A stretch of 64,000 nucleotides of DNA from assembly GCA_043823085.1 (NCBI GenBank), contig JBDRBE010000004.1, positions 197,510 through 261,509 on the forward strand, in the 5' to 3' direction. Under the pieces are notes generated by a model. It was not told where the DNA came from and made no database searches. It saw only the letters and a list, made by a program, of their open reading frames with translations. A program made the translations under genes and the position numbers. Of the stretch, positions 14,158-27,031 are shown piece after piece; position 1 is the first letter of the stretch, and each line of letters opens with the position of its first letter. This DNA comes from Candidatus Levyibacteriota bacterium. GTDB lineage: Bacteria > Patescibacteriota > Microgenomatia > Levybacterales > UBA12049.

Positions 14158-15318
14158 CTAAATTTTCAGCATCCATTTAATAGTTGTCATAACGGATTTT
14201 GGGACTGTAATGGCAGGTTGAATAATTTCATTTGTAACTTTGGAAAAATCCACAATTTTTTCTTCATTTTGCTCCATTTTTTTTGCCAAAAATGATTCAT
14301 TGTCAACTGATAATTGCGGTTTTCCCGGTATTTTTGCAATTTCTTTTACGGCTTTTTGATTTTCATTTTCAGAGCCGTCAATATTGGTAAAAGAAAACAT
14401 GTCAAATGGTGACCCTGCTTTTAAAAGAAAAGGGGTAACAGCGACAATATTTTCATCGTTCCAAATCAAGTTGTAGGCAGTTCGAAGGTATTGAGGAATT
14501 ATGTCAGAAGAAACTGAATTGCTTGACCAGCCGGTTTCAGTGATAAATACGGGTAAATCTTTTCCGCCTAAAGTTTTGGCCAAATTTTTCTCATATCTAA
14601 AACTTGCAATGCTCATAGTTCCTAAAGTTGTCGGCGGTTTGGAAAAACCGGGGTTTGGATAAGAATGGCTGGCAAGCCCGTCAACTTTGGAAAACACATT
14701 ATTAAAAGCGCTCATTTGCCGCATAAAATCGTATTCGTTGATATATTTTCCATAAACATTTGCACAGCCGTTGTCAAGACCGGAAGATAAAATAAAAAAA
14801 TCCTGACTTCTTTCTTTAAAAATATCAACGGCATAACTTAAAATCCGGGCGTATTCTTTCGGGTTTGGACTTCCTTCCCATTCGTCACCGCGATTTACTT
14901 CGTTAAAAACGACAACGTAACGATTAATTGTCGGCCATGTCAAAGAATTTAAAAAATTAGCAAAGTCCAAAACATCGTATTCTGTTGGTTTTCGCCAGAC
15001 ACTTGTATTAAAATAATCTCCCTCGGAGGCAAGTCTGATAATTGGAATAACGTGTTTCTGCCTTGCAGAGTCCATAAAATTCTGCCATTTTAAAAGATCT
15101 TTATCACCTGCCTGAATTGGAATTGTCACATAGCCCCAATCACCGCCGTTTGAATTAACCAATCTTGCCGCGTCATTTATCTCATCTGGAAAGAGGATAT
15201 GAATGCCGAATTTATTGTTTGGAACCTTCAGCGGATCCTCAATAGCAAAGACTTGTTTTGGAAGAAGAAAATAAGAAAGAAGAAAGAAGAAAATAATAAT
15301 AACTTTCAATTTTGTCAT
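14158..15318 (-). CDS. Secreted glycoside hydrolase with a clan GH-A TIM-barrel (GH5-like)
   Basis: Signal peptide, FNEVNRGDEW (NE acid/base) and ITETGW (nucleophile) motifs. Confidence 0.55.
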   Translation of the reverse strand: MTKLKVIIIFFFLLSYFLLPKQVFAIEDPLKVPNNKFGIHILFPDEINDAARLVNSNGGDWGYVTIPIQAGDKDLLKWQNFMDSARQKHVIPIIRLASEGDYFNTSVWRKPTEYDVLDFANFLNSLTWPTINRYVVVFNEVNRGDEWEGSPNPKEYARILSYAVDIFKERSQDFFILSSGLDNGCANVYGKYINEYDFMRQMSAFNNVFSKVDGLASHSYPNPGFSKPPTTLGTMSIASFRYEKNLAKTLGGKDLPVFITETGWSSNSVSSDIIPQYLRTAYNLIWNDENIVAVTPFLLKAGSPFDMFSFTNIDGSENENQKAVKEIAKIPGKPQLSVDNESFLAKKMEQNEEKIVDFSKVTNEIIQPAITVPKSVMTTIKWMLKI

Positions 15319-15531
15319 GCTTTTATTATAGCATGGTTAAAATCGAAAGTCAGAAAACCGGCAGACAAAAATCCGAAAACTCAAAACAAAAAACCCATAA
15401 GCGAAATACTAACTAATCGCTAATTGCTAATCGCTAGTTAGCAATCTCTTTAAGGAGTTGCCTTTCCTCACACTTAGGACTAAAATAAAAGTCAGATGGC
15501 AAAGAAAATTAGAGAAATTAAGGGAGCTAAT

Positions 15532-15690
15532 ATGGATATTGATTTTACTCTTTCCTCATGGAAGCATGGTGAGTGTCCTTGGGGAAAAAATCACAAATGT
15601 GCTGTCAAAAATGTTTCAATTTGTGATCATTTTGAAGGCGTGAAGAAATTAGATACAGTCCTTTGCAGCTACCCAGACAAAAAATCATAA
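15532..15690 (+). CDS. Small Cys/His-rich hypothetical protein (~52 aa)
   Basis: AAGGGA Shine-Dalgarno sequence 7 nt upstream of the ATG; sequence ...HGECPWGKNHKCAVKNVSICDH. Confidence 0.35.
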   Translation: MDIDFTLSSWKHGECPWGKNHKCAVKNVSICDHFEGVKKLDTVLCSYPDKKS

Positions 15691-15760
15691 ATCATAAATC
15701 CTATCCCCTAGACCCCCAATCTCCCCTTTTGTGCCATAATGAGGCAAGAAAATTCCCTTC

Positions 15761-15790
15761 TTGACAATAGACCAAAGAGTCGGGTATTAT
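15761..15790 (+). promoter_or_regulatory. Promoter of the lexA-paralog operon: -35 TTGACA at 15761-15766, 18-nt spacer, -10 TATTAT at 15785-15790; the ATG is 7 nt downstream, so the mRNA is leaderless
   Basis: Read directly. GAAAATTC lies just upstream of the -35. Confidence 0.5.
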
Positions 15791-15796
15791 TGTTTT

Positions 15797-16435
15797 ATGC
15801 AAGCTAATCCCACACAACGACAAAAAGAGCTGCTTTCTATTATTTACCAATATATCCAAAATACCGGCTATCCTCCATCTTTTGAAGAAATGAAAAAACA
15901 ACTTGATGTTTCTTCAAATCAATCTGTCTTAGATCTTTTGATCAAACTGGAAGAACGGAGTTTGCTTAAAAGAAATGAATCTTCAGCTAGAAGTATCCTT
16001 ATACTGCCTCTTGGTTATGAAATTCTCGACAAACCTCCTCTTGCCCCATTCCTTGGCGCTACAAGCGCCGGTGTTCCGCTTGAAGCCATAGAAATCTCTG
16101 GAGACTGGCAGCCTCTTTCTTCAGACGTTGCCAAACTGCAAGACAATGTTTTTCTGCTCAAAATTTCTGGTGATTCCATGATTAATGCCGGTATTGATAA
16201 CGGCGATATGGTTTTAGTTAAAAGCGAAAAGGAATTTGTCTCGGGCGATATTGTATTGGCGCAAATTGGAGACGAAGCTACAATTAAACGATTTATGTCG
16301 GACGATAAACCGCCTTATGTTTATTTAAAACCAGAAAATCCAAAATATAGAATTATCCCTTTTACTGACGAAATGAGACTAACGGGAAAAGTTGTTTCTG
16401 TCTTCAGAGAAGGTTCTTGGAGGTCAGTTAATTAA
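15797..16435 (+). CDS. Second LexA-family repressor (LexA DNA-binding domain plus S24 peptidase)
   Basis: YPPSFEEMKKQLDVSS...LLIKLEERSLLKR N-terminus, GDSM Ser motif and ATIKRF Lys motif. The stop lies 3 nt before the next gene. Confidence 0.8.
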   Translation: MQANPTQRQKELLSIIYQYIQNTGYPPSFEEMKKQLDVSSNQSVLDLLIKLEERSLLKRNESSARSILILPLGYEILDKPPLAPFLGATSAGVPLEAIEISGDWQPLSSDVAKLQDNVFLLKISGDSMINAGIDNGDMVLVKSEKEFVSGDIVLAQIGDEATIKRFMSDDKPPYVYLKPENPKYRIIPFTDEMRLTGKVVSVFREGSWRSVN

Positions 16436-16438
16436 AAT

Positions 16439-18394
16439 ATGCCGACACAAAAGTTAAATAAAACAAAAGAAGTTATTGGAAAAATCTTTAAAGATTCTCA
16501 AATTCCTTATGGCTTGAAGGAATTTGGAGAGATTAGTCTAGAAGAAACTCTTACAATTACCGAAGAGGAGAAAGGGAGATTTTATATTAAAGACTTAAAA
16601 TCAGGTAATTTAAGATTTGTTTTTGATGAGGAAAAACAGTCGGGGAAACCGGAAGAGATTGTCAGGCAGCTTTGGTTGTATAAACTTCATACGCAATATC
16701 AATACCCTTTGGATAGAATTGACATAGAAAAAAGTATCCATTTTGGCCGTGAAATCCACGCTAAAGCCGCGGATATTGTTATTTATAAAAAGGATAAAAT
16801 TACTCCTTACATCATTGTTGAAGTTAAAAGTCCTACAGAAGAAAAAGGGATTGATCAGCTTAAGAGCTATTTAAGTGCTGAGGGAGCGGAAATTGGCCTT
16901 TGGTCAAATGGATTAAAGCGAGTTATTCTCTATCGCCCGTATCCTAGAGAATACAACGATACTCTTCCGGATTTGCCCCTTGCAAATACGACCATTGACG
17001 ATCTGCTAGAGGCTAAGAAGACTCTTTTTGAATACACCACCACTAAAATTAATTTAAAAGAAACAATTGAGACGATGGAAGAGTTAGTGCTTGCTAATGC
17101 TGGCGTGGATGTTTTTAATGAAGTTTTTAAGTTAATTTATGCCAAACTCTATGATGAAGGAGAAGCTAAATTTAGAAAAGATAATGAAGTTTATTTCAGA
17201 AAATATAAAGATCCGCAAAAAACTTATAATGTAATTAATGATCTTTTCAAAAAAGCAATCCACAAGTGGCCTGGTACTTTCTTTGAACAGGAAAACATCA
17301 GACTTTCTCCAGAACATCTTAATATTGTTGTTGGTGAACTAGAAAAAGCACGCCTTTTTGGCTCAGACCTTTCTATTATTGATGAAGCATTTGAATATTT
17401 AATCCCGGAAGTGGCCAAAGGTAAAAAAGGTCAGTACTTTACCCCTCGTCATGTTATTTCCATGGCGGTTAAAATGCTTAATCCCAAAAAAGACGAATAT
17501 GTGATTGACCCGGCGGCAGGTTCGGGTGGTTTTCTTATCAATGCCATGTATTTTGTTCGCGAGCAACACTTAAATGGTTCTGATGAGGCCATGAGAGAAT
17601 ACGCCAAAGATTATGTTTGGGGAATTGATTTTGCTGAAGAAATTTCCAAAGTTTCACGGGCCTTAATGTTGATTGCCGGCGATGGTCGTTCCCATATGTT
17701 TAGACTTAACTCTTTAGATCCGAGGGAGTGGCAAGGCGAGGATTCGGATCTTCTTGATGCTCGCTCCAAACTGAAAAACAGGCTTCTGGATTTAAGTAAT
17801 TCTTCTGATAGTTCGGAAAACCAACAAACTTTTCATTATTTCAACTTCGATGTTTTGTTAACGAATCCTCCGTTTGCCGGCGAAATTAAAGATAGCGGAA
17901 TTTTAAGGCAGTATTTTTTGGGAAGAAGAAAAGGGAAATTGGCTAACAAAATTGAACGACATATTTTGTTTATTGAAAGGGTTTTGGATATGATTCGTCC
18001 GGGTGGGCGTTTGGCAATAGTTTTACCTCAAGGAATTTTGAATAATACCAATATGGAATATATAAGAAACTGGCTTTTTGAAAAAGCCAGAATTTTAGCA
18101 GTGGTTGGACTTCATGGGAATACTTTTAAGCCTCATGCTGGAACTAAAACTTCGGTTTTGTTTTTACAAAAATGGGAAGAAAAAGAACAGCCTCTAAAAG
18201 ATTACCCAATTTTTATGGCAGTTTCCAAAAAAGGAGGGAAAGATAATTCCGGGGAATATATTTACAAAAAAGATGCAAATGGAAATTATGTTCATGATCA
18301 AAAGGGCAGAAAAGTTTTAGACCATGATTTAGACCAAATAGCAGATTCATTTATAAAATTTGCAAAGGAGCAAAATTTCAACTTTTGGAGATGA
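16439..18394 (+). CDS. Fusion of an HsdR_N-like PD-(D/E)xK nuclease domain and a gamma-class N6-adenine DNA methyltransferase (HsdM-like / BcgI-A-like restriction-modification subunit)
   Basis: N-terminus ADIVIYKKDKITPYIIVEVK carries the D...EVK nuclease motif. The methyltransferase has DPAAGSGGFL (motif I) and NPPF (motif IV). Confidence 0.8.
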   Translation: MPTQKLNKTKEVIGKIFKDSQIPYGLKEFGEISLEETLTITEEEKGRFYIKDLKSGNLRFVFDEEKQSGKPEEIVRQLWLYKLHTQYQYPLDRIDIEKSIHFGREIHAKAADIVIYKKDKITPYIIVEVKSPTEEKGIDQLKSYLSAEGAEIGLWSNGLKRVILYRPYPREYNDTLPDLPLANTTIDDLLEAKKTLFEYTTTKINLKETIETMEELVLANAGVDVFNEVFKLIYAKLYDEGEAKFRKDNEVYFRKYKDPQKTYNVINDLFKKAIHKWPGTFFEQENIRLSPEHLNIVVGELEKARLFGSDLSIIDEAFEYLIPEVAKGKKGQYFTPRHVISMAVKMLNPKKDEYVIDPAAGSGGFLINAMYFVREQHLNGSDEAMREYAKDYVWGIDFAEEISKVSRALMLIAGDGRSHMFRLNSLDPREWQGEDSDLLDARSKLKNRLLDLSNSSDSSENQQTFHYFNFDVLLTNPPFAGEIKDSGILRQYFLGRRKGKLANKIERHILFIERVLDMIRPGGRLAIVLPQGILNNTNMEYIRNWLFEKARILAVVGLHGNTFKPHAGTKTSVLFLQKWEEKEQPLKDYPIFMAVSKKGGKDNSGEYIYKKDANGNYVHDQKGRKVLDHDLDQIADSFIKFAKEQNFNFWR

Positions 18395-18395
18395 A

Positions 18396-18932
18396 ATGAA
18401 AAATAAAAGAAAAATAGTATACGCTTTTATAGACAGTCAGAATTTAAACTTGGGGACGAGTAAAGATATCTACAAGAGCAGAGGTAAGTATAAAAAATTA
18501 ATATACAAAGGTTGGAAACTGGATTTTCGCAAATTTAGGAAATATTTATTTGATAAATTTAGAGTTAGCAAAGCCTTTTTATTTATTGGCTATATTAAAC
18601 AAAATGAAAAGATGTATAAACGCTTAAAGTCTTACGGGTATGAATTAATTTTTAAGCCCACTGTAAAAGATGATTATGGAAAGCCAAAAGGAAATGTTGA
18701 TGCGGAACTTGTGCTTCATGCGGCGGCTATAGAATTTTCAAACTATGCTAAAGCCATAGTTGTTTCAAATGACGGTGATTTTCGTTGTTTGCATGAGTAT
18801 TTAGAAAAAAGGAGTAAGCTACTATACATAGTTATCCCTAATAAACATAGTGAGTCTAGTTTATTAAAAGAGTTTCAGAGATACAAAATATTTCTTTATC
18901 GTGAGAAGGAGAACTTAGAATTTAAGCAATAA
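18396..18932 (+). CDS. NYN-domain (LabA-like, PIN-like) putative ribonuclease
   Basis: IVYAFIDSQNL, GNVDAELVLHA and VVSNDGDF acidic motifs. GGAG Shine-Dalgarno sequence 10 nt upstream; begins 1 nt after the methyltransferase stop. Confidence 0.7.
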   Translation: MKNKRKIVYAFIDSQNLNLGTSKDIYKSRGKYKKLIYKGWKLDFRKFRKYLFDKFRVSKAFLFIGYIKQNEKMYKRLKSYGYELIFKPTVKDDYGKPKGNVDAELVLHAAAIEFSNYAKAIVVSNDGDFRCLHEYLEKRSKLLYIVIPNKHSESSLLKEFQRYKIFLYREKENLEFKQ

Positions 18933-18949
18933 AAATGGGAGGCGTCGCA

Positions 18950-18968
18950 AATAGACACGTAGTCTATT
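18950..18968. repeat. Perfect 7-bp inverted repeat AATAGAC-N5-GTCTATT
   Basis: Read directly, 18 nt after the NYN gene stop. Confidence 0.8.
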
Positions 18969-19048
18969 GGTCGTATTCTCCCTAATGATTAGTTAGATTA
19001 TATTAGCTTTTATGATGATAGTCAAGATAGCAAAAGATATCAAAAAAG

Positions 19049-19077
19049 GATGGTTCGGCAAACTCACCACAAGAGGA
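19049..19077 (+). repeat. 29-nt direct repeat, copy 1 (GATGGTTCGGCAAACTCACCACAAGAGGA), ending in the Shine-Dalgarno sequence of the orphan gene
   Basis: Matches copy 2 at 26 of 29 positions; all mismatches are A/G transitions. Confidence 0.85.
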
Positions 19078-19103
19078 TTTAGTTTTTGGAGGTAATATTA
19101 CAT

Positions 19104-19649
19104 ATGAGACCTAAGCTTGAAATAGATTTTGAACATTTTGCTGTAATGCTATTTGGAGATAGATACTATCAATATTGCAACTGGAACACGGAAAGTAATT
19201 ATAAAAAACTTTTGAAAGAAATAGCTCATCAATTAGAGATAGTAATTAACTCACAATTTACACCATCTGATGGTTTACAAAAACAAATGATAGAATTTTC
19301 ACTAGAAAAACTTCAGCGATCACCTAAAAAAAGCAATTACGAAGCATATTACATCAAAGAGTTAGTAACAATTATTTTTTGGATATTAGGTGACTTTCCC
19401 AACAACTGGCAAAGAAAAAACCTTAGAGGTAAAAAGATAGATAATTTCCATTATTCACGAAGTTTACACTATTCTCAAACTCTTAATCAAAAGATAAATA
19501 CTATTCTTGAAGCTCATAGGCTATCTCCTTTTTCCGAAAGGATATCTTGGCATGATCTAATAGTAAAAATAGGGCAATCTGGCGGTAGGGATAAATTTAT
19601 AGATTTTTATAAAAAAACTTACCCCGATTTATATTTGAAACTATTTTAA
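19104..19649 (+). CDS. Orphan hypothetical protein (182 aa) embedded in the restriction-modification-like operon
   Basis: GGAGG Shine-Dalgarno sequence 13 nt upstream of the ATG at 19104; no recognisable domain. Confidence 0.55.
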   Translation: MRPKLEIDFEHFAVMLFGDRYYQYCNWNTESNYKKLLKEIAHQLEIVINSQFTPSDGLQKQMIEFSLEKLQRSPKKSNYEAYYIKELVTIIFWILGDFPNNWQRKNLRGKKIDNFHYSRSLHYSQTLNQKINTILEAHRLSPFSERISWHDLIVKIGQSGGRDKFIDFYKKTYPDLYLKLF

Positions 19650-19686
19650 TATGATTACTTATTCAATAATCCAAAAATCTCAACTT

Positions 19687-19715
19687 GATGGTTCGACAAG
19701 CTCGCCACAAGAGGA
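19687..19715 (+). repeat. 29-nt direct repeat, copy 2 (GATGGTTCGACAAGCTCGCCACAAGAGGA), ending in the hsdS Shine-Dalgarno sequence
   Basis: See copy 1. Confidence 0.85.
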
Positions 19716-19727
19716 GCACTTTATTTT

Positions 19728-21098
19728 ATGATTTCATATTCAATCATTAACAAAAGTCAGTTAGAGGGAGCCTCGCGGCTGGATGCGGAATATTATCAGC
19801 CGGAATATTTAACCCTTGCTCAAAAACTAAGAGAGCTTAGTCTCCCCAGAATAAGCAAACTAGGTTTAGCTGTTGATGCGAGCGCTTTTTATCCATCAAT
19901 AGCAGAATACTATACTAGCGATGGGATCCCTTTTGTCAGGGTTGCAGATGTTGTAAATTTTCAATTGATTGAGGATGATTTATTGTTCTTGCCCAAAAAA
20001 ATTGCTGAGCAATATAAAACATTACGAAAAGGTAAGCCGGGAGATATTATTATCACAAAAGGTGGTACTGTAGGAAACGCAGCTCTCCTCCCTAAAAAAT
20101 ATCCAGAATACGCATTGAGCAGAGATATTATTTTTATTAGAACCTCAAAACTTCCAGAAGAGCTAGCAATAACAATTCTTCTATTTTTAAATTCAAAGTT
20201 TGGAATTTTTCAGTTGCTAAGAGGCGCAAGTCAGCAAATTCAACAACATTTAACTTTCCCATTTATTCGAGACTTAAATGTTCCCAAAATTGCCATTTAT
20301 GAAGCAGTAGAACTTTATCGAAAGGGGCTTGATGAATACGAAAATTCGAAATCTTTATACGCTAAAGCCGAGAATTTGCTTCTGGAGGAGTTGGGATTAA
20401 AAGATTTTCAAGTTGAAGATGATTTGAGTTTTGTTGTAAATCTTTCAGATGTAAAATCTGCAAACCGAGTTGATGCGGAACACTTTCAGCCGAAATATGA
20501 TAAATTATTGGAAAAAATTAAGCAAAATAAATGTCAAGTTTTAACAAGTATAATAGAAAACGTCAACGCAAAATTTGATCCTATTAAAACTCCAGATTCG
20601 GAATTTAAATATGTTGAATTAGCAAACATTAACTCATCTATAGGAGTTATTGATGGTTATACTGAAGTTTTAGGCAAAGAAGCCCCAAGCAGAGCAAAAA
20701 GATTATTAAAAAAAGACGATGTAATTGTTTCAAGCATTGAGGGATCTCTAGAAAAAGTTGCTCTAGCGGATGAGGAGCAAGATGGTTATATTGCTTCAAC
20801 CGGGTTTTTCCAATTTAGATCAAAAGAGTTATTACCGGAGGTAATTTTAATTTTTGCAAAAAGCATGGTTTTACAGTGGCAGTTTAAAAAACATTGTGCA
20901 GGTACGATATTAACAGCAGTTCCCGGCGAAGCTTTACAAAAAATGTTTATTCCAATAATTTCAAAACCCACCCAACAAAAAATTGCGGAATTGGTGAGGA
21001 AATCACATGAGGCAAGGAAAAAATCAAAAGAGCTTTTAGAAGAAGCGAAAAGAAAAGTTGAGACTTCGATAGAAACTCAGTCTAAAAGAAATGATTGA
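19728..21098 (+). CDS. hsdS: Type I restriction-modification specificity subunit with two target-recognition domains
   Basis: Duplicated RLDAEYYQP and RVDAEHFQP motifs, a central conserved coiled region, and C-terminal ELLEEAKRKVE. Confidence 0.85.
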   Translation: MISYSIINKSQLEGASRLDAEYYQPEYLTLAQKLRELSLPRISKLGLAVDASAFYPSIAEYYTSDGIPFVRVADVVNFQLIEDDLLFLPKKIAEQYKTLRKGKPGDIIITKGGTVGNAALLPKKYPEYALSRDIIFIRTSKLPEELAITILLFLNSKFGIFQLLRGASQQIQQHLTFPFIRDLNVPKIAIYEAVELYRKGLDEYENSKSLYAKAENLLLEELGLKDFQVEDDLSFVVNLSDVKSANRVDAEHFQPKYDKLLEKIKQNKCQVLTSIIENVNAKFDPIKTPDSEFKYVELANINSSIGVIDGYTEVLGKEAPSRAKRLLKKDDVIVSSIEGSLEKVALADEEQDGYIASTGFFQFRSKELLPEVILIFAKSMVLQWQFKKHCAGTILTAVPGEALQKMFIPIISKPTQQKIAELVRKSHEARKKSKELLEEAKRKVETSIETQSKRND

Positions 21099-21317
21099 AA
21101 AAAGATAATGAAGATAAATCTGCAACAAGAATTAAAATTTATTCATTCTGAAAAAATGAATACCGTTGACAAAAATAGTTTATCTTTTGAAATGTTAAAT
21201 ATCGCTCAAGTTTTAATATCAAATTACGCTAACGCAGAAACAAAAAAGTTAAAATCTTTTTACAGAACAATTTATTTTAAAACAAAAAATTTCTATTTAA
21301 ATCAATACAAATTGTAG

Positions 21318-21605
21318 TTATTCTAGCGGCAGATTATTCGACCATTGAATAAATTTCATACAATATTCAAAACTTCCAAAGTCACCCTCTTTTTGAGTTA
21401 TAAATACCTGACACCTATTCTTCTCGGCAGATACAGCATCTAAAAGTTCTTTATAACGATTGCTTTGCTCGCGGAGCGTTTGGACTTCCGAAAGAACCGC
21501 CTTTGCCTTTTGTTCGCTATTTACAATCCCTGAATACCAGTAATAAACACATCCTGCGATTACAACGACCACTAAAAATAGTAAAATAACTAATTTCTTC
21601 CGCAT
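21318..21605 (-). CDS. Small membrane-anchored hypothetical protein
   Basis: GGAG Shine-Dalgarno sequence before MRKKLVILLFLVVVVIAG; single N-terminal transmembrane helix. Confidence 0.4.
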   Translation of the reverse strand: MRKKLVILLFLVVVVIAGCVYYWYSGIVNSEQKAKAVLSEVQTLREQSNRYKELLDAVSAEKNRCQVFITQKEGDFGSFEYCMKFIQWSNNLPLE

Positions 21606-21678
21606 ATTCTTTATATCTCCAATTCTAATTATATCACAAATTACTTTCAAACATTACATTGTTCGCTTTTACATATAC

Positions 21679-21708
21679 TTGTCAAGCAGACGAGTAGATT
21701 GGTATAAT
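21679..21708 (+). promoter_or_regulatory. tRNA-Lys promoter: -35 TTGTCA, 18-nt spacer, -10 TATAAT, about 9 nt before the tRNA 5' end
   Basis: Read directly. The -35 sits inside the palindrome CTTGTCAAG, which reads TTGACA on the other strand. Confidence 0.6.
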
Positions 21709-21717
21709 GAAGAGTAC

Positions 21718-21789
21718 GGGCCGGTAGCTCAGCGGTAGAGCAGGAGCCTTTTAAGCTCTTGGTCACAGGTTCGAATCCTGTCCGGCTCA
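21718..21789 (+). tRNA. tRNA-Lys (anticodon TTT)
   Basis: Cloverleaf folded by hand: acceptor GGGCCGG/CCGGCTC, anticodon loop CTTTTAA, T-loop GGTTCGAATCC. No CCA encoded. Confidence 0.88.
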
Positions 21790-21870
21790 CTCTTCGACTC
21801 GCACAATGCAATTGTGCTCGCTCAGAGTAAACTCGAGTCAAAGAACCCTGAGCTTGTCGAAGGGCTAACA

Positions 21871-22125
21871 ATGTCTTGGTTCGTTTATATAGCTAGAGCA
21901 AAAACTAACAGATTTTATACGGGGATCACTACATGTCCTAACAAAAGGATCACAAAGCACAATTCAGGCAAGGGTTCAAGGTTTGCTATAGAACAAGGTC
22001 CATTTGAACTGATTTATAGCTCCAAAGCATTTCCAGATAAATCAGAAGCAAGAAAGAGGGAAATTCAAATTAAAGGTTGGTCAAGAGAAAAGAAATTAAA
22101 ACTAATAAGCGGGGCGTGGAAATAG
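21871..22125 (+). CDS. GIY-YIG nuclease superfamily protein (UPF0213-like)
   Basis: WFVYIARAKTNRFYTGITT...KHNSGKG...REIQIKGWSREKK; GAAGGG Shine-Dalgarno sequence upstream. Confidence 0.75.
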   Translation: MSWFVYIARAKTNRFYTGITTCPNKRITKHNSGKGSRFAIEQGPFELIYSSKAFPDKSEARKREIQIKGWSREKKLKLISGAWK

Positions 22126-22173
22126 AATTAGAGAGACCGAATTTTTCCAATACGGTTCATCACTACCCTTTTC

Positions 22174-22299
22174 CTAATCAGGTCCATAAAAGTATTGCAT
22201 TGCTCCACAACACATAAGATAAACTAATTCCTGTATTTGTTTTAATTCTTCCTCTGATGCATTAGGATAATATTTTCGTATTACATCCAATGGTAACAT
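22174..22299 (-). CDS. Hypothetical 41-aa protein (MLPLDVIRKYYPNASEEELKQIQELVYLMCCGAMQYFYGPD)
   Basis: Strong Shine-Dalgarno sequence AAGGTGGTGA 7 nt before the ATG. It is below the ORF-track size cutoff. Confidence 0.3.
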   Translation of the reverse strand: MLPLDVIRKYYPNASEEELKQIQELVYLMCCGAMQYFYGPD

Positions 22300-22428
22300 T
22301 TATAATCACCACCTTCATTCGTCAAAACTCATAGGTTTTATTTTAGAAGCGACTGAGTGTTTCAAGAAAGGAGAAAAACATCATTCAGTCTTTATTATCT
22401 GTTAAAATAGTGCTTGCTTATATAAATT

Positions 22429-24220: not shown

Positions 24221-27031
24221 ATGGTCTGTTATGCTAAACGCAAGTTGAGCATCGCTAAAATATTTTCTTGGGCAATTTTAACTATTTGTGTTGTTGTTTT
24301 TGTCTTGTTGTTAAACATTGTTTCTCTGGTTACCGATTGGTGGTGGTATTCCGAAGTAGGATATTCCGAAATTTTCATAAAGTCCCTCAGCGCTAAAATC
24401 ATTGTGGGTTTTTCGGCTGGACTCATTGCAGCTGTTTTTCTTCTTACCAACATATTTTTTGCCCTGCGTTCTAAAATACCGTGGACAATAAAAATCCCGG
24501 AAGCTATGGTTGGCACCAGTCAGCCTTTAAGCTTGAGCAGTGGTTTATTTGGAAAACTTAGCATCATTATCAGTCTTATAATTTCTATCTTTATCGGTCT
24601 TATTGCGGCAAGTAATTGGAGCGATGTCTTGAGATTTCTCTCACAAGTCCCTTTTGATCAAAAAGATCCATTGTTTGGTCTGGATGTTTCTTTTTATGTA
24701 TTTTCGCTTCCCGTTTATTCTTTGGGGCTTAGTCTTATAAAAATTCTTCTTCTTGTATCTCTTATTGGTTGCTGTACTGCCTATATTTTGCGAGGCAGTC
24801 TTAAGCTTTCAAGTATTTTTGGTAAATTTGGTTCGCCGCAATTAACCGCAAAACCAAAGAAGCTTCATGATGCTTATTCACCAAGCGCAATACAAACCGA
24901 TAAGAAAGCCAGATTACACATCGGAATTTTATTATTTCTTTTTTTTACAGCAACTGCAGTTGGCACTCATTTTTCTATTTATGATTTGCTTATTAGTCAA
25001 AGCGGTGTTGTATTTGGTGCGGTTTTCACCGATGCAAATATTGTTATTCCTATTTTACGCGCATCTGTTTTTATTTACGGTTTCTCTGCAATTTTAGCAT
25101 TATTTTATGGAATATCCGGAAGAGTCGCGCCTCTTTTAGGTGCAGTTTTATTAACTATAATAGTCGGATTTGCATCTTCGATTTTTCCATCAATTTTTCA
25201 AAAACTGGTCGTAGCGCCAAATGAGCTTGTTAAGGAAGCTCCGTTTATCAAAAACAATATTTATGCCAGTCGCAAAGCTTATGGTTTGGACAATGTGGAA
25301 GAACGGGAAATAGCCGCAGACAAACCAATTACAGCATCCGATATCGCAGCTAACAATTTAACAATCAAAAATGTTCGGCTTTGGGACAGAGATCCGCTTC
25401 TCTCCACTTTTTCACAAATCCAGGAGATTAGAACTTATTACGAGTTCGCGTCAGTTGATAATGACCGTTACATGATTAACGATGAAATACGTCAAATCAT
25501 GCTTTCACCAAGAGAGTTGGCTTCGGATAGTCTGCCGAACAAAAATTGGATTAACGAAACGCTTACTTTTACTCACGGATATGGCGCGGCTGCCGGACCC
25601 GTAAACCAAGTTACACCGGAAGGGTTACCGGTGCTATTCGTTAAAGACTTACCTCCAAAATCTGAAGTTGAAGAACTTAAAATCACCAGACCGGAGGTTT
25701 ACTATGGAGAAATTTTAAATGATTACGTTATAGTCAAAACTAAATCTAAAGAATTCGACTATCCAAAAGGGGAAGATAATGTATACACCTCTTATGCAGG
25801 GAAGGGTGGAGTTGAGATTAATTCGTCTTTGCGTCGGATTTTCTATGCCTTACGTTTTGGTTCGTTAAAATTATTTTTATCAAGTGACGTTACCAGAGAA
25901 AGCCGTATTATTTATAATCGCAATATAAAAGAAAGAGTCAGCAAAATCGCACCTTTTCTTACTTACGACCGAGATCCATATCTTGTAATTAGCGATGGTA
26001 AACTGCGTTGGATTCTCGATGCTTACACGTCCACTGACCGTTATCCCTATTCCCAGCCGCTATCTATAGATGGAAATAAAGTAAACTACATCAGAAATTC
26101 AGTTAAGGTAGTGATTGATGCCTACGATGGGTCAGTCAAATTTTATCAAAGTGATCCTGATGATCCAATTATTAAAGCTTATTCCAAGATTTTCCCCAAA
26201 ACTTTTCAAAAGCTTTCAGATATGCCCAAAAGCCTGATCGTGCATCTTCGTTATCCCGAGGATATTTTTACTTTGCAAACTACTATTTATACTATATATC
26301 ACATGGATGATCCGCAGATTTTCTATAATAAAGAAGATCAGTGGGAAATCCCTGCTATTACTCAAGGGGATGAGCTGCAGGCGATGGATCCTCGGCACAT
26401 GATTATGAAGCTTCCCGGTGAAAAACAAGAGGAATTTATTCTAATGTTGCCATTTACGCCTAGGGCCAAAGATAATCTATCCGCATGGATGGTTGCCAGA
26501 AATGACGAAGAGCAGTATGGTAAACTTATGGTTTACCGCTTTCCCAAAGATAAATTGGTGTTTGGTCCCAAGCAGATAATCGGCCGAATTAGCCAAGATG
26601 CGCAGATCAGTCAGCAAATTTCCCTGTGGGATCAGACCGGTTCTCAAGTAATTCAGGGGCCCCTTTTGGTCATTCCGATTGAGGAATCTTTGGTTTACGT
26701 GCGGCCGCTTTATCTTAAGGCAACAACTGGTAAGATCCCGGAACTCAAACGGGTAATTGTTGCATATGAAAACAAGATTGCCATGGAGGAGACTTTGGAG
26801 GAAGGTCTGGCTAAAATCTTTGGTAATGTTGAGGGTCAAACCAAGCCATCCGAAGAAATATTTCTTCAAGCAACAGAACCAATATCCATTGATATAACTA
26901 AAGAAGACCTGCTTGAGCAAGCAAGTCAAGCGTATAAGTCCGCTATCAATGCGCAACGCGAGGGAGATTGGGGAAGGTATGGAGAGGAAATAAATACTTT
27001 GGGAGAAATACTAAACAGACTTAAACAGTAA
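24221..27031 (+). CDS. UPF0182-family large membrane protein
   Basis: About 930 aa with multiple N-terminal transmembrane helices and a large extracytoplasmic C-terminal domain; the overall architecture matches UPF0182. Confidence 0.65.
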   Translation: MVCYAKRKLSIAKIFSWAILTICVVVFVLLLNIVSLVTDWWWYSEVGYSEIFIKSLSAKIIVGFSAGLIAAVFLLTNIFFALRSKIPWTIKIPEAMVGTSQPLSLSSGLFGKLSIIISLIISIFIGLIAASNWSDVLRFLSQVPFDQKDPLFGLDVSFYVFSLPVYSLGLSLIKILLLVSLIGCCTAYILRGSLKLSSIFGKFGSPQLTAKPKKLHDAYSPSAIQTDKKARLHIGILLFLFFTATAVGTHFSIYDLLISQSGVVFGAVFTDANIVIPILRASVFIYGFSAILALFYGISGRVAPLLGAVLLTIIVGFASSIFPSIFQKLVVAPNELVKEAPFIKNNIYASRKAYGLDNVEEREIAADKPITASDIAANNLTIKNVRLWDRDPLLSTFSQIQEIRTYYEFASVDNDRYMINDEIRQIMLSPRELASDSLPNKNWINETLTFTHGYGAAAGPVNQVTPEGLPVLFVKDLPPKSEVEELKITRPEVYYGEILNDYVIVKTKSKEFDYPKGEDNVYTSYAGKGGVEINSSLRRIFYALRFGSLKLFLSSDVTRESRIIYNRNIKERVSKIAPFLTYDRDPYLVISDGKLRWILDAYTSTDRYPYSQPLSIDGNKVNYIRNSVKVVIDAYDGSVKFYQSDPDDPIIKAYSKIFPKTFQKLSDMPKSLIVHLRYPEDIFTLQTTIYTIYHMDDPQIFYNKEDQWEIPAITQGDELQAMDPRHMIMKLPGEKQEEFILMLPFTPRAKDNLSAWMVARNDEEQYGKLMVYRFPKDKLVFGPKQIIGRISQDAQISQQISLWDQTGSQVIQGPLLVIPIEESLVYVRPLYLKATTGKIPELKRVIVAYENKIAMEETLEEGLAKIFGNVEGQTKPSEEIFLQATEPISIDITKEDLLEQASQAYKSAINAQREGDWGRYGEEINTLGEILNRLKQ

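Follow-up and report, generated by a model that had tools for sequence, protein, structure and literature searches.

In the restriction-modification (R-M) enzyme BsaXI (PDB 8W0P, 8W2P and 8W2Q) a single chain, the RM subunit, combines a PD-(D/E)XK nuclease at its N-terminus with a helical connector and an N6-adenine methylase of the gamma class, and forms an (RM)2S complex with a separate specificity (S) subunit. Alanine mutagenesis has shown that residues E73, D90, E105 and K107 of BsaXI are essential for cleavage, and these residues are conserved across type IIB enzymes (PMC11997821). Loenen et al. (PMC3874165) list AloI/CjeI-like and HaeIV/IIG-like single-chain layouts beside the BcgI-type '2RM + S' arrangement. 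We analyzed a stretch of 64,000 nucleotides of Candidatus Levyibacteriota DNA (the window), in which a gene encoding a nuclease-methyltransferase fusion, here named RM, is preceded by lexA and followed, after two intervening genes, by an hsdS-like gene. We consider it likely that the RM and S proteins constitute a BcgI/BsaXI-like (RM)2S enzyme that would methylate and cut a bipartite target without ATP or HsdR and would be expressed from a LexA-controlled promoter; the enzyme is known here from its sequence and a predicted structure. The RM fusion as such belongs to a familiar class (type IIB/IIG), whose members have been called 'trimmed-down type I' enzymes, and in our opinion its lexA context matters more than the enzyme class itself.

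The original prediction, made from the letters of the DNA and a list of its open reading frames (ORFs), had placed at 16439-18394 an HsdR_N/Mrr-like nuclease joined to an adenine methyltransferase. The ORF has exactly these coordinates; it is on the plus strand, starts with ATG and encodes 651 aa. The nuclease motif proposed for its N-terminal part is real (AAD112IVIY...IIVE128VK130) and is complemented by an upstream glutamate, E97; the Pfam family HSDR_N_2 matched this region with an E-value of 9e-22 (77.7 bits, cutoff 25). The methyltransferase part was correctly recognized as well: it matched N6_Mtase (5.4e-36) and the Eco57I methylase family (7e-12), and motif I (DPAAGSG at residue 357) precedes motif IV (NPPF at residue 476), which is the order found in the gamma class. 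These Pfam matches are far beyond chance. In the AlphaFold2 (AF2) model of RM, which has a mean predicted local distance difference test score (pLDDT) of 70.9, the nuclease domain displays an alpha-beta-beta-beta-alpha-beta core at a pLDDT of about 85-92 (residues 31-100, about 85-92; residues 111-130, about 87). Methyltransferase motifs I and IV are invariant within the clade from the candidate phyla radiation (CPR, or Patescibacteria), and so are E97, D112, E128 and K130 in 27 clade members. In a more diverse set of 86 sequences, consisting of the query and 85 representatives out of a 50%-clustered library, the same four residues are kept in 72, 85, 80 and 79 sequences, respectively.

RM is 100% identical to an NCBI entry named 'N-6 DNA methylase' from a Candidatus Levyibacteriota metagenome-assembled genome (MAG), and several sources annotate its homologues as 'type I restriction enzyme M protein'. 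The PADLOC model PDLC03034 ('Type I methyltransferase', a REBASE-derived MTase_I model) matched RM over its full length with 591 bits, indicating that this architecture has already been catalogued. Among the representatives P0121-P0270 there are also methylase-only forms of about 420 aa, which start near query residue 205 and have no nuclease domain. Longer forms of 920-930 aa are found in Desulfobacterales (loci L076, L085 and L087), where an AAA_15/AAA_23 ATPase is encoded 3-4 kb downstream.

Three kinds of search singled out BsaXI as the closest relative of known structure. When RM was compared with the PDB by sequence, the RM subunit of BsaXI was the best match (7.8e-31), with both the nuclease and the methylase parts aligned, and type I HsdM proteins were found at 1e-14 to 1e-17. 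A fold search with the AF2 model also placed BsaXI first (8w0p_A, E-value 2.4e-19, 697 columns); type I M subunits scored 1e-11 to 1e-12 and the type IIG enzymes BpuSI and DrdV 1e-8 to 1e-9. Finally, a profile limited to the nuclease domain and built from 24 diverse family members retrieved the restriction endonuclease domain of BsaXI at 6e-7, followed by Cas4 (0.02) and the nuclease of a Vibrio vulnificus type I HsdR (0.1). The family profile was needed to obtain this signal, as phmmer with the N-terminal 222 aa of RM gave only noise against the PDB. The catalytic residues E73, D90, E105 and K107 of BsaXI align with E97, D112, E128 and K130 of RM. The D/E/K residues, whose loss on proper alignment the original prediction had named as a sign that it was wrong, are therefore retained, and its view of a BcgI-like type IIB or motor-less enzyme gains support from sequence, fold and nuclease profile alike.

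The likeness to BsaXI has its limits. Identity between the two RM proteins is merely about 21-23%, and the RM subunit of BsaXI is larger (916 aa), having a C-terminal knob and a paddle that are needed for cleavage and that the 651-aa protein of the window does not have. In size, the latter is close to the RM subunit of BcgI (~637 aa), the S subunit of which (~341 aa) is smaller than the 456-aa S of the window. To our knowledge, BsaXI does not occupy a lexA operon.

As in BsaXI, the S subunit of the window is encoded by a separate gene, which is located 1.3 kb downstream of RM and separated from it by the two cargo genes mentioned above. An HsdS had been predicted at 19728-21098, and this assignment holds: the protein matched PADLOC Specificity_I (1.4e-49, in two stretches spanning 60-450), Pfam Methylase_S (4.5e-9) and the type I HsdS structures 3okg/5ybb in the PDB (7e-19). 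An HsdS-like C-terminus is fused to the RM homologue in 44 of the 150 nearest 50%-cluster representatives; two recognition domains are present in about 10 of these fused proteins, which measure 1100-1210 aa, and a single one in about 25, which measure 800-850 aa. In layout they correspond to single-chain type IIB/IIG enzymes (AloI, CjeI, TstI, HaeIV and MmeI), from which the window differs in having S as a separate gene. Enzymes of type IIB cut both strands at fixed distances on either side of their bipartite site and thereby release a short fragment. Three of the features that mark such enzymes are found together in the window: a nuclease located N-terminal to a gamma-class N6-adenine methylase in one polypeptide, an intact PD-(D/E)XK site, and a two-domain HsdS-like component.

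The original prediction stated that the window contains no HsdR motor. In agreement with this, neither HsdR nor a superfamily 2 (SF2) restriction motor was found in the 64-kb window, and every ORF of at least 596 aa could be accounted for otherwise (PEP-utilising enzyme, UvrA, transglutaminase-like protein, AMP-binding enzyme, BipA and UPF0182). The 936-aa ORF at 24221-27031 had been considered as an HsdR candidate and was rejected, since it is UPF0182; the 978-aa ORF is UvrA. Ten more ORFs of 344-488 aa are unrelated to HsdR. The search was extended to related loci, 80 of them taken, with flanks of up to 10 kb, from species-representative genomes, plus seven metagenome loci. No HsdR was found within 10 kb of RM in the ~75 non-redundant loci of this set. 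A canonical hsdR belonging with this M/S pair, which had been named beforehand as the other sign against a motor-less enzyme, is thus seen neither in the window nor within that distance of its relatives. After exclusion of RM, S and LexA there are 56 ORFs of at least 600 aa near the relatives, and all of these are housekeeping or other non-HsdR proteins according to Pfam, including RpoB, tRNA synthetases, Lon, ClpB, PNPase, phosphoketolase, P-type ATPases and Pol I. The helicase-like large ORFs near the relatives were rejected as HsdR because they correspond to RecG, UvrB, UvrD, Mfd and FtsK.

The gene directly upstream of RM encodes LexA. Its product satisfies the TIGR00498 equivalog model (154.4 bits, cutoff 110.95), is composed of a winged helix-turn-helix domain and an S24 peptidase domain, and has the same sequence (100% identity) as a Ca. 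Levyibacteriota protein entered at NCBI as 'transcriptional repressor LexA'. Judged by its residues, which include an Ala90-Gly91 cleavage site, Ser127 in a GDSM motif and Lys164, it is predicted to be an intact self-cleaving SOS repressor. The promoter in front of lexA is the best sigma-70-like match in the region 15200-22300 (11 of 12 positions), and the same promoter layout is seen at lexA of related loci. Of 33 distinct lexA promoters, 32 have the sequence GTCGGG immediately 5' of the -10 box. Several lexA loci have the perfect palindrome CCCGAC-N6-GTCGGG, the family consensus being CCnGAC-N6-GTCGGG, and the copy at 15767-15784 is the sole site in the window that scores at least 10 bits for this motif. 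The conserved dyad between the -35 and -10 boxes is therefore a candidate LexA autoregulatory operator. In 21 of 32 loci (for instance L002, L009, L011, L020, L033 and L089) a DnaA-box-like TTATCCACA, with at most one mismatch, is located within 110 nt upstream of the operator; the promoter of the window has none.

Bases 15761-21098 are best explained as a single operon consisting of promoter/operator, lexA, the RM fusion, two cargo genes and hsdS (Table 1). The original account of this region as an M/S pair was right about RM and HsdS; it overlooked that they belong to a lexA operon and that two cargo genes lie between them. The arrangement recalls type II operons controlled by C proteins, in which the regulator likewise directly precedes the restriction gene. 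The regulator in the window is not a C protein; it is LexA, a full equivalog that includes the autocleavage domain, and this would tie expression to DNA damage.

Table 1. Features of the predicted lexA-RM-S operon (positions are those of the window).
Feature	Position	Strand	Remarks
Operon promoter	15761..15790	+	-35 TTGACA at 15761-15766, 18-nt spacer, -10 TATTAT at 15785-15790
Operator-like imperfect palindrome ATAGAC-CAAAGA-GTCGGG, putative LexA site	15767..15784	+	Abuts the -10 box
lexA, 212 aa	15797..16435	+	TIGR00498; Pfam LexA_DNA_bind and Peptidase_S24; ATG at 15797
RM subunit, nuclease-methyltransferase fusion, 651 aa	16439..18394	+	ATG start, 3 nt past the lexA stop
PD-(D/E)XK nuclease domain, residues 71-180	16649..16978	+	Pfam HSDR_N_2; E97, D112, E128, K130
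Gamma-class N6-adenine DNA methyltransferase domain, residues 313-647	17375..18379	+	Pfam N6_Mtase, Eco57I; motifs I and IV
Cargo gene 1, NYN-domain (PIN-like nuclease) protein, 178 aa	18396..18932	+	Pfam NYN 5.7e-13; ATG 1 nt past the RM stop
29-nt direct repeat, copy a (GATGGTTCGGCAAACTCACCACAAGAGGA)	19049..19077	+	5' of cargo gene 2; repeat family D2
Cargo gene 2, orphan ORF, 181 aa	19104..19649	+	No family match
Possible scar: duplicated hsdS 5' end (19650-19691), then 29-nt repeat copy b (19687-19715)	19650..19715	+	Repeat families D1 and D2
hsdS-like specificity subunit, two target-recognition domains, 456 aa	19728..21098	+	PADLOC, Pfam and PDB matches

The linkage between lexA and RM extends far beyond the window. 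Neighbors of RM were classified with hidden Markov models in the 74 non-redundant loci having at least 750 nt of upstream DNA. The lexA model was made from five seeds, of which the window copy was out of frame; matches had E-values of 1e-48 to 1e-113 and the classification was unaffected. In 48 of the 74 loci lexA is located directly upstream of RM, and all 48 are CPR-type (drawn from L001-L046, L052, L056, L064, L067, L068, L079 and L083). Each of them has the gene order lexA, RM, zero to three variable cargo genes, hsdS, and in 46 the gap between lexA and RM is -48 to +20 nt. According to the record titles they come from Saccharibacteria, Gribaldobacteria, Falkowbacteria, Ryanbacteria, Nealsonbacteria, Staskawiczbacteria, Azambacteria, Beckwithbacteria, Collierbacteria, Roizmanbacteria, Woesebacteria, Moranbacteria, Berkelbacteria, Peregrinibacteria and others. 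Most of the 26 loci that have no lexA belong to non-CPR relatives, in which RM is 45-58% identical and RM and S adjoin. Nitrospira, Ignavibacteria, Elusimicrobiota, Chloroflexota, Acidobacteria, Nitrosopumilus and DPANN are among the taxa of this second group. Some of the MAG taxon labels are doubtful. In four MAGs titled 'uncultured Gammaproteobacteria' (L018, L024, L025 and L031) RM is 64-73% identical, and the three with upstream DNA present (L018, L024 and L031) carry a CPR-type lexA; mis-binning or mis-labelling is the likely origin of these titles.

Pairwise identities were compared for the 39 complete lexA-RM-S loci. Those of LexA and RM are correlated (Spearman 0.75, Mantel p about 0.001), and those of S correlate with neither LexA nor RM (0.03 and 0.07). 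This indicates that lexA and RM were inherited together and that the specificity subunits turn over. Median pairwise identities are 62% for RM, 56% for LexA and 35% for S, the S subunits ranging from 27 to 76%. No description of a lexA-linked R-M system in CPR, Patescibacteria or Saccharibacteria was found in the searchable literature, which did not cover the study of the Patescibacteria SOS regulon by Sanchez-Osuna et al. (2017; Environ Microbiol 19:3465), where the operator or the operon may already be described. With this proviso, a co-diverging operon of lexA, RM and S that is found throughout the superphylum and has a cargo slot built into it appears to be new.

LexA homologues chosen regardless of RM gave a complementary view. 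In the Daviesbacteria loci L088 and L091 (6001-10009) lexA is followed by a paralogue of itself, a gene for an N6_N4 methylase, one for an endonuclease of the MvaI/BcnI type, an unknown gene and ThsB-TIR. In the Nealsonbacteria genome L089 (6001-8355) lexA precedes an unknown gene and an N6_N4 methylase, and on the marine-sediment contig L090 the order is lexA, RM, an AAA_15 ATPase and S. The same operator is present at each of these four loci. The position downstream of lexA is therefore a general site for R-M and defence genes.

The slot between RM and hsdS is highly variable. In CPR loci the two genes are separated by 0-2.1 kb containing zero to three genes on the same strand, and clustering of the 57 slot ORFs gave 42 groups, the cargo being non-homologous between loci. 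Pfam identified DUF3800 (5), RnlA-toxin DNA-binding domains (3), NYN (2), MazF/PemK, an AAA_15/OLD-like ATPase, a trypsin-like protease, ORF6N and others; PADLOC identified PDC-M04A (4), PDC-S05, PDC-S22, AriA/Old/GajA-like proteins, AbiLi, NsnB and mad3. The CPR slot thereby resembles R-M loci with embedded defence genes (PADLOC PDC candidates). It is empty in several CPR loci and in most non-CPR loci, indicating that RM and S function without cargo.

Of the two cargo genes in the window, the second one (19104-19649) had no match in Pfam, NCBIfam or PADLOC, and only three homologues of it were found among 5.8 billion proteins. The two homologues whose contigs were examined are each the sole gene between RM and hsdS of a lexA-RM-S operon. 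This gene is flanked by the two copies of a 29-nt repeat (19049-19077 and 19687-19715), which are 90% identical. The duplicated hsdS 5' end at 19650-19691 is 71% identical to 19727-19768 and gives a pseudo-start peptide, MITYSIIQKSQLDGS... The same 29-mer is present just upstream of hsdS in L024 (12772-12827), again together with the pseudo-start peptide. The repeat and the duplicated hsdS 5' end may represent a cassette-junction scar or a shared leader. As a general scar of cargo insertion the duplicated hsdS 5' end was rejected, as it was observed in only 2 of 43 loci.

The mechanism that we favor can be outlined as follows. RM and HsdS would most likely assemble as a complex of the BcgI/BsaXI type, with a presumed (RM)2S stoichiometry, in which the two target-recognition domains of S would read a bipartite DNA sequence. 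Each RM subunit would methylate one adenine per half-site with S-adenosylmethionine as the donor. Unmethylated DNA would be cut at a fixed distance by the N-terminal PD-(D/E)XK domain through E97, D112, E128 and K130; cleavage is expected to be two-sided and independent of ATP, and would involve no HsdR translocase. RM begins 3 nt past the lexA stop and a palindromic operator lies over the -10 box, so that RM expression is probably governed by LexA autoregulation, and would be de-repressed upon RecA-stimulated self-cleavage of LexA. We tentatively extend this to the CPR as a whole: the SOS master repressor and a motor-less R-M system could form one ancient, co-inherited transcription unit, in which DNA damage, self-restriction or phage DNA would provoke LexA self-cleavage and, as a direct consequence, increase restriction and methylation together with expression of the defence cargo located between RM and S.

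Several observations weigh against the BcgI/BsaXI-like enzyme under LexA control. BsaXI requires its C-terminal paddle (D816 and E823; PMC11997821), which is absent from RM; BcgI-sized enzymes also have no paddle. The S subunit of the window resembles type I HsdS, and phmmer gave no match between it and the S subunit of BsaXI. As to regulation, the operator motif is absent upstream of the other SOS genes uvrA (29302), uvrC (33991) and dinB (46402, minus strand) in the window, and no convincing further operator sites were found elsewhere in the related loci. Identification of the dyad as a LexA box thus follows from its position and symmetry. Moreover, RM is more conserved than LexA and is co-inherited with it across the superphylum, which is atypical of defence R-M systems and could point to another role. 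Lastly, the scan of the source DNA for hsdR covers 64 kb of a 431-kb contig.

This last point bears directly on the idea that RM and S are the M-S core of a classical type I system, with HsdR encoded elsewhere in the genome and the nuclease-like domain being an accessory. Classical type I enzymes such as EcoKI and EcoR124I (HsdR2M2S) likewise combine a two-domain HsdS with an HsdM-like gamma-class methylase, and the type I-like S, the full-length PDLC03034 match and the type I names given to RM homologues all agree with such an origin. However, RM scored 42.5 bits against the hsdM equivalog model TIGR00497, far under its cutoff of 242.75, and differs from a classical M subunit in that the nuclease is located on the methylase subunit itself and no HsdR/SF2 motor accompanies it in the window. 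The strong conservation of the nuclease residues on M, the existence of single-chain R-M-S relatives, the lack of hsdR within 10 kb at ~75 loci and the much better match to BsaXI than to any HsdM make this origin highly improbable. We also considered that RM and S might be the methylase-specificity core of a MADS-type multi-gene system (Mad2/Mad5-like), in which the slot genes are the effectors and the RM nuclease is not the main killer. The best NCBIfam names are indeed MAD2 (5e-93) and MAD5 (1.6e-36), and PADLOC mad2 and mad5 also match; the Mad2 model aligns with residues 64 to 622 of RM and so spans both the nuclease-like and the methylase parts. In addition, one slot gene at another locus matches mad3 (2e-11), and slot genes are of nuclease, toxin or ATPase types. 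Yet the scores are far under the equivalog cutoffs (312.5 versus 720 bits for MAD2, NF047738; 126.1 versus 400 bits for MAD5, NF047740), and none of mad1, mad3, mad4 and mad6-8 was matched among the neighbors at 15761-22125 by NCBIfam or PADLOC. Since the slot can moreover be empty and its cargo is non-homologous between loci, membership of a MADS-type system seems very unlikely.

The conservation of RM raises another possibility, namely that it is a domesticated enzyme without a role in defence, acting as a housekeeping or epigenetic methylase or in SOS-regulon processing of damaged or imported DNA, its nuclease being inactive or re-purposed. The superphylum-wide linkage to lexA and the co-divergence of the two genes would fit this, as would the varied housekeeping neighborhoods of the loci, in which no signs of mobile elements were seen. 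It is nevertheless unlikely, given that the catalytic tetrad is intact and conserved, that the slot holds cargo of defence and toxin types, and that other CPR lineages have ordinary type II R-M genes and ThsB-TIR at the position downstream of lexA; free diversification of S, uncorrelated with RM, is what would be expected of an arms race over specificity. The same presence of different R-M types and a TIR gene downstream of lexA can be read in yet another way, which concerns the regulatory claim only: the lexA flank could be an insertion hotspot for R-M and defence genes, without control of the enzyme by LexA. Restriction of the operator motif, among the SOS genes of the window, to lexA agrees with a hotspot. 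Against it, the stop codon of lexA adjoins or overlaps the RM start in 46 of 48 loci, no terminator-like site is present between lexA and RM in the window, and LexA and RM co-diverge, which is not expected from random re-insertion. We regard a mere hotspot as possible, if doubtful, and retain the view that the BcgI/BsaXI-like enzyme is likely to be expressed under LexA control.

RM-S would add another uncharacterised enzyme to the rare BcgI/BsaXI class, in which new type IIB specificities are of use as tools. Co-transcription and co-inheritance with LexA, if correct, would connect defence with the response to DNA damage in organisms whose genomes are tiny and in which few immune systems are known, and the operon could represent a module of innate immunity wired to the SOS response and conserved in a superphylum that is largely without CRISPR. 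The slot between RM and S gives the impression of a natural gathering place for small genes of defence or toxin type, among them orphans like the 181-aa ORF. Both the lexA link and the slot idea are open to tests in Saccharibacteria that can be cultivated and by simple biochemistry.

The genes flanking the operon in the window, none of which is conserved beside it in other loci, are a 386-aa ORF without Pfam match on the minus strand (14158-15318), a Cys/His-rich ORF of 64 aa upstream of lexA (15496-15690) and, downstream of hsdS, a gene for a small stand-alone GIY-YIG protein (21814-22125).

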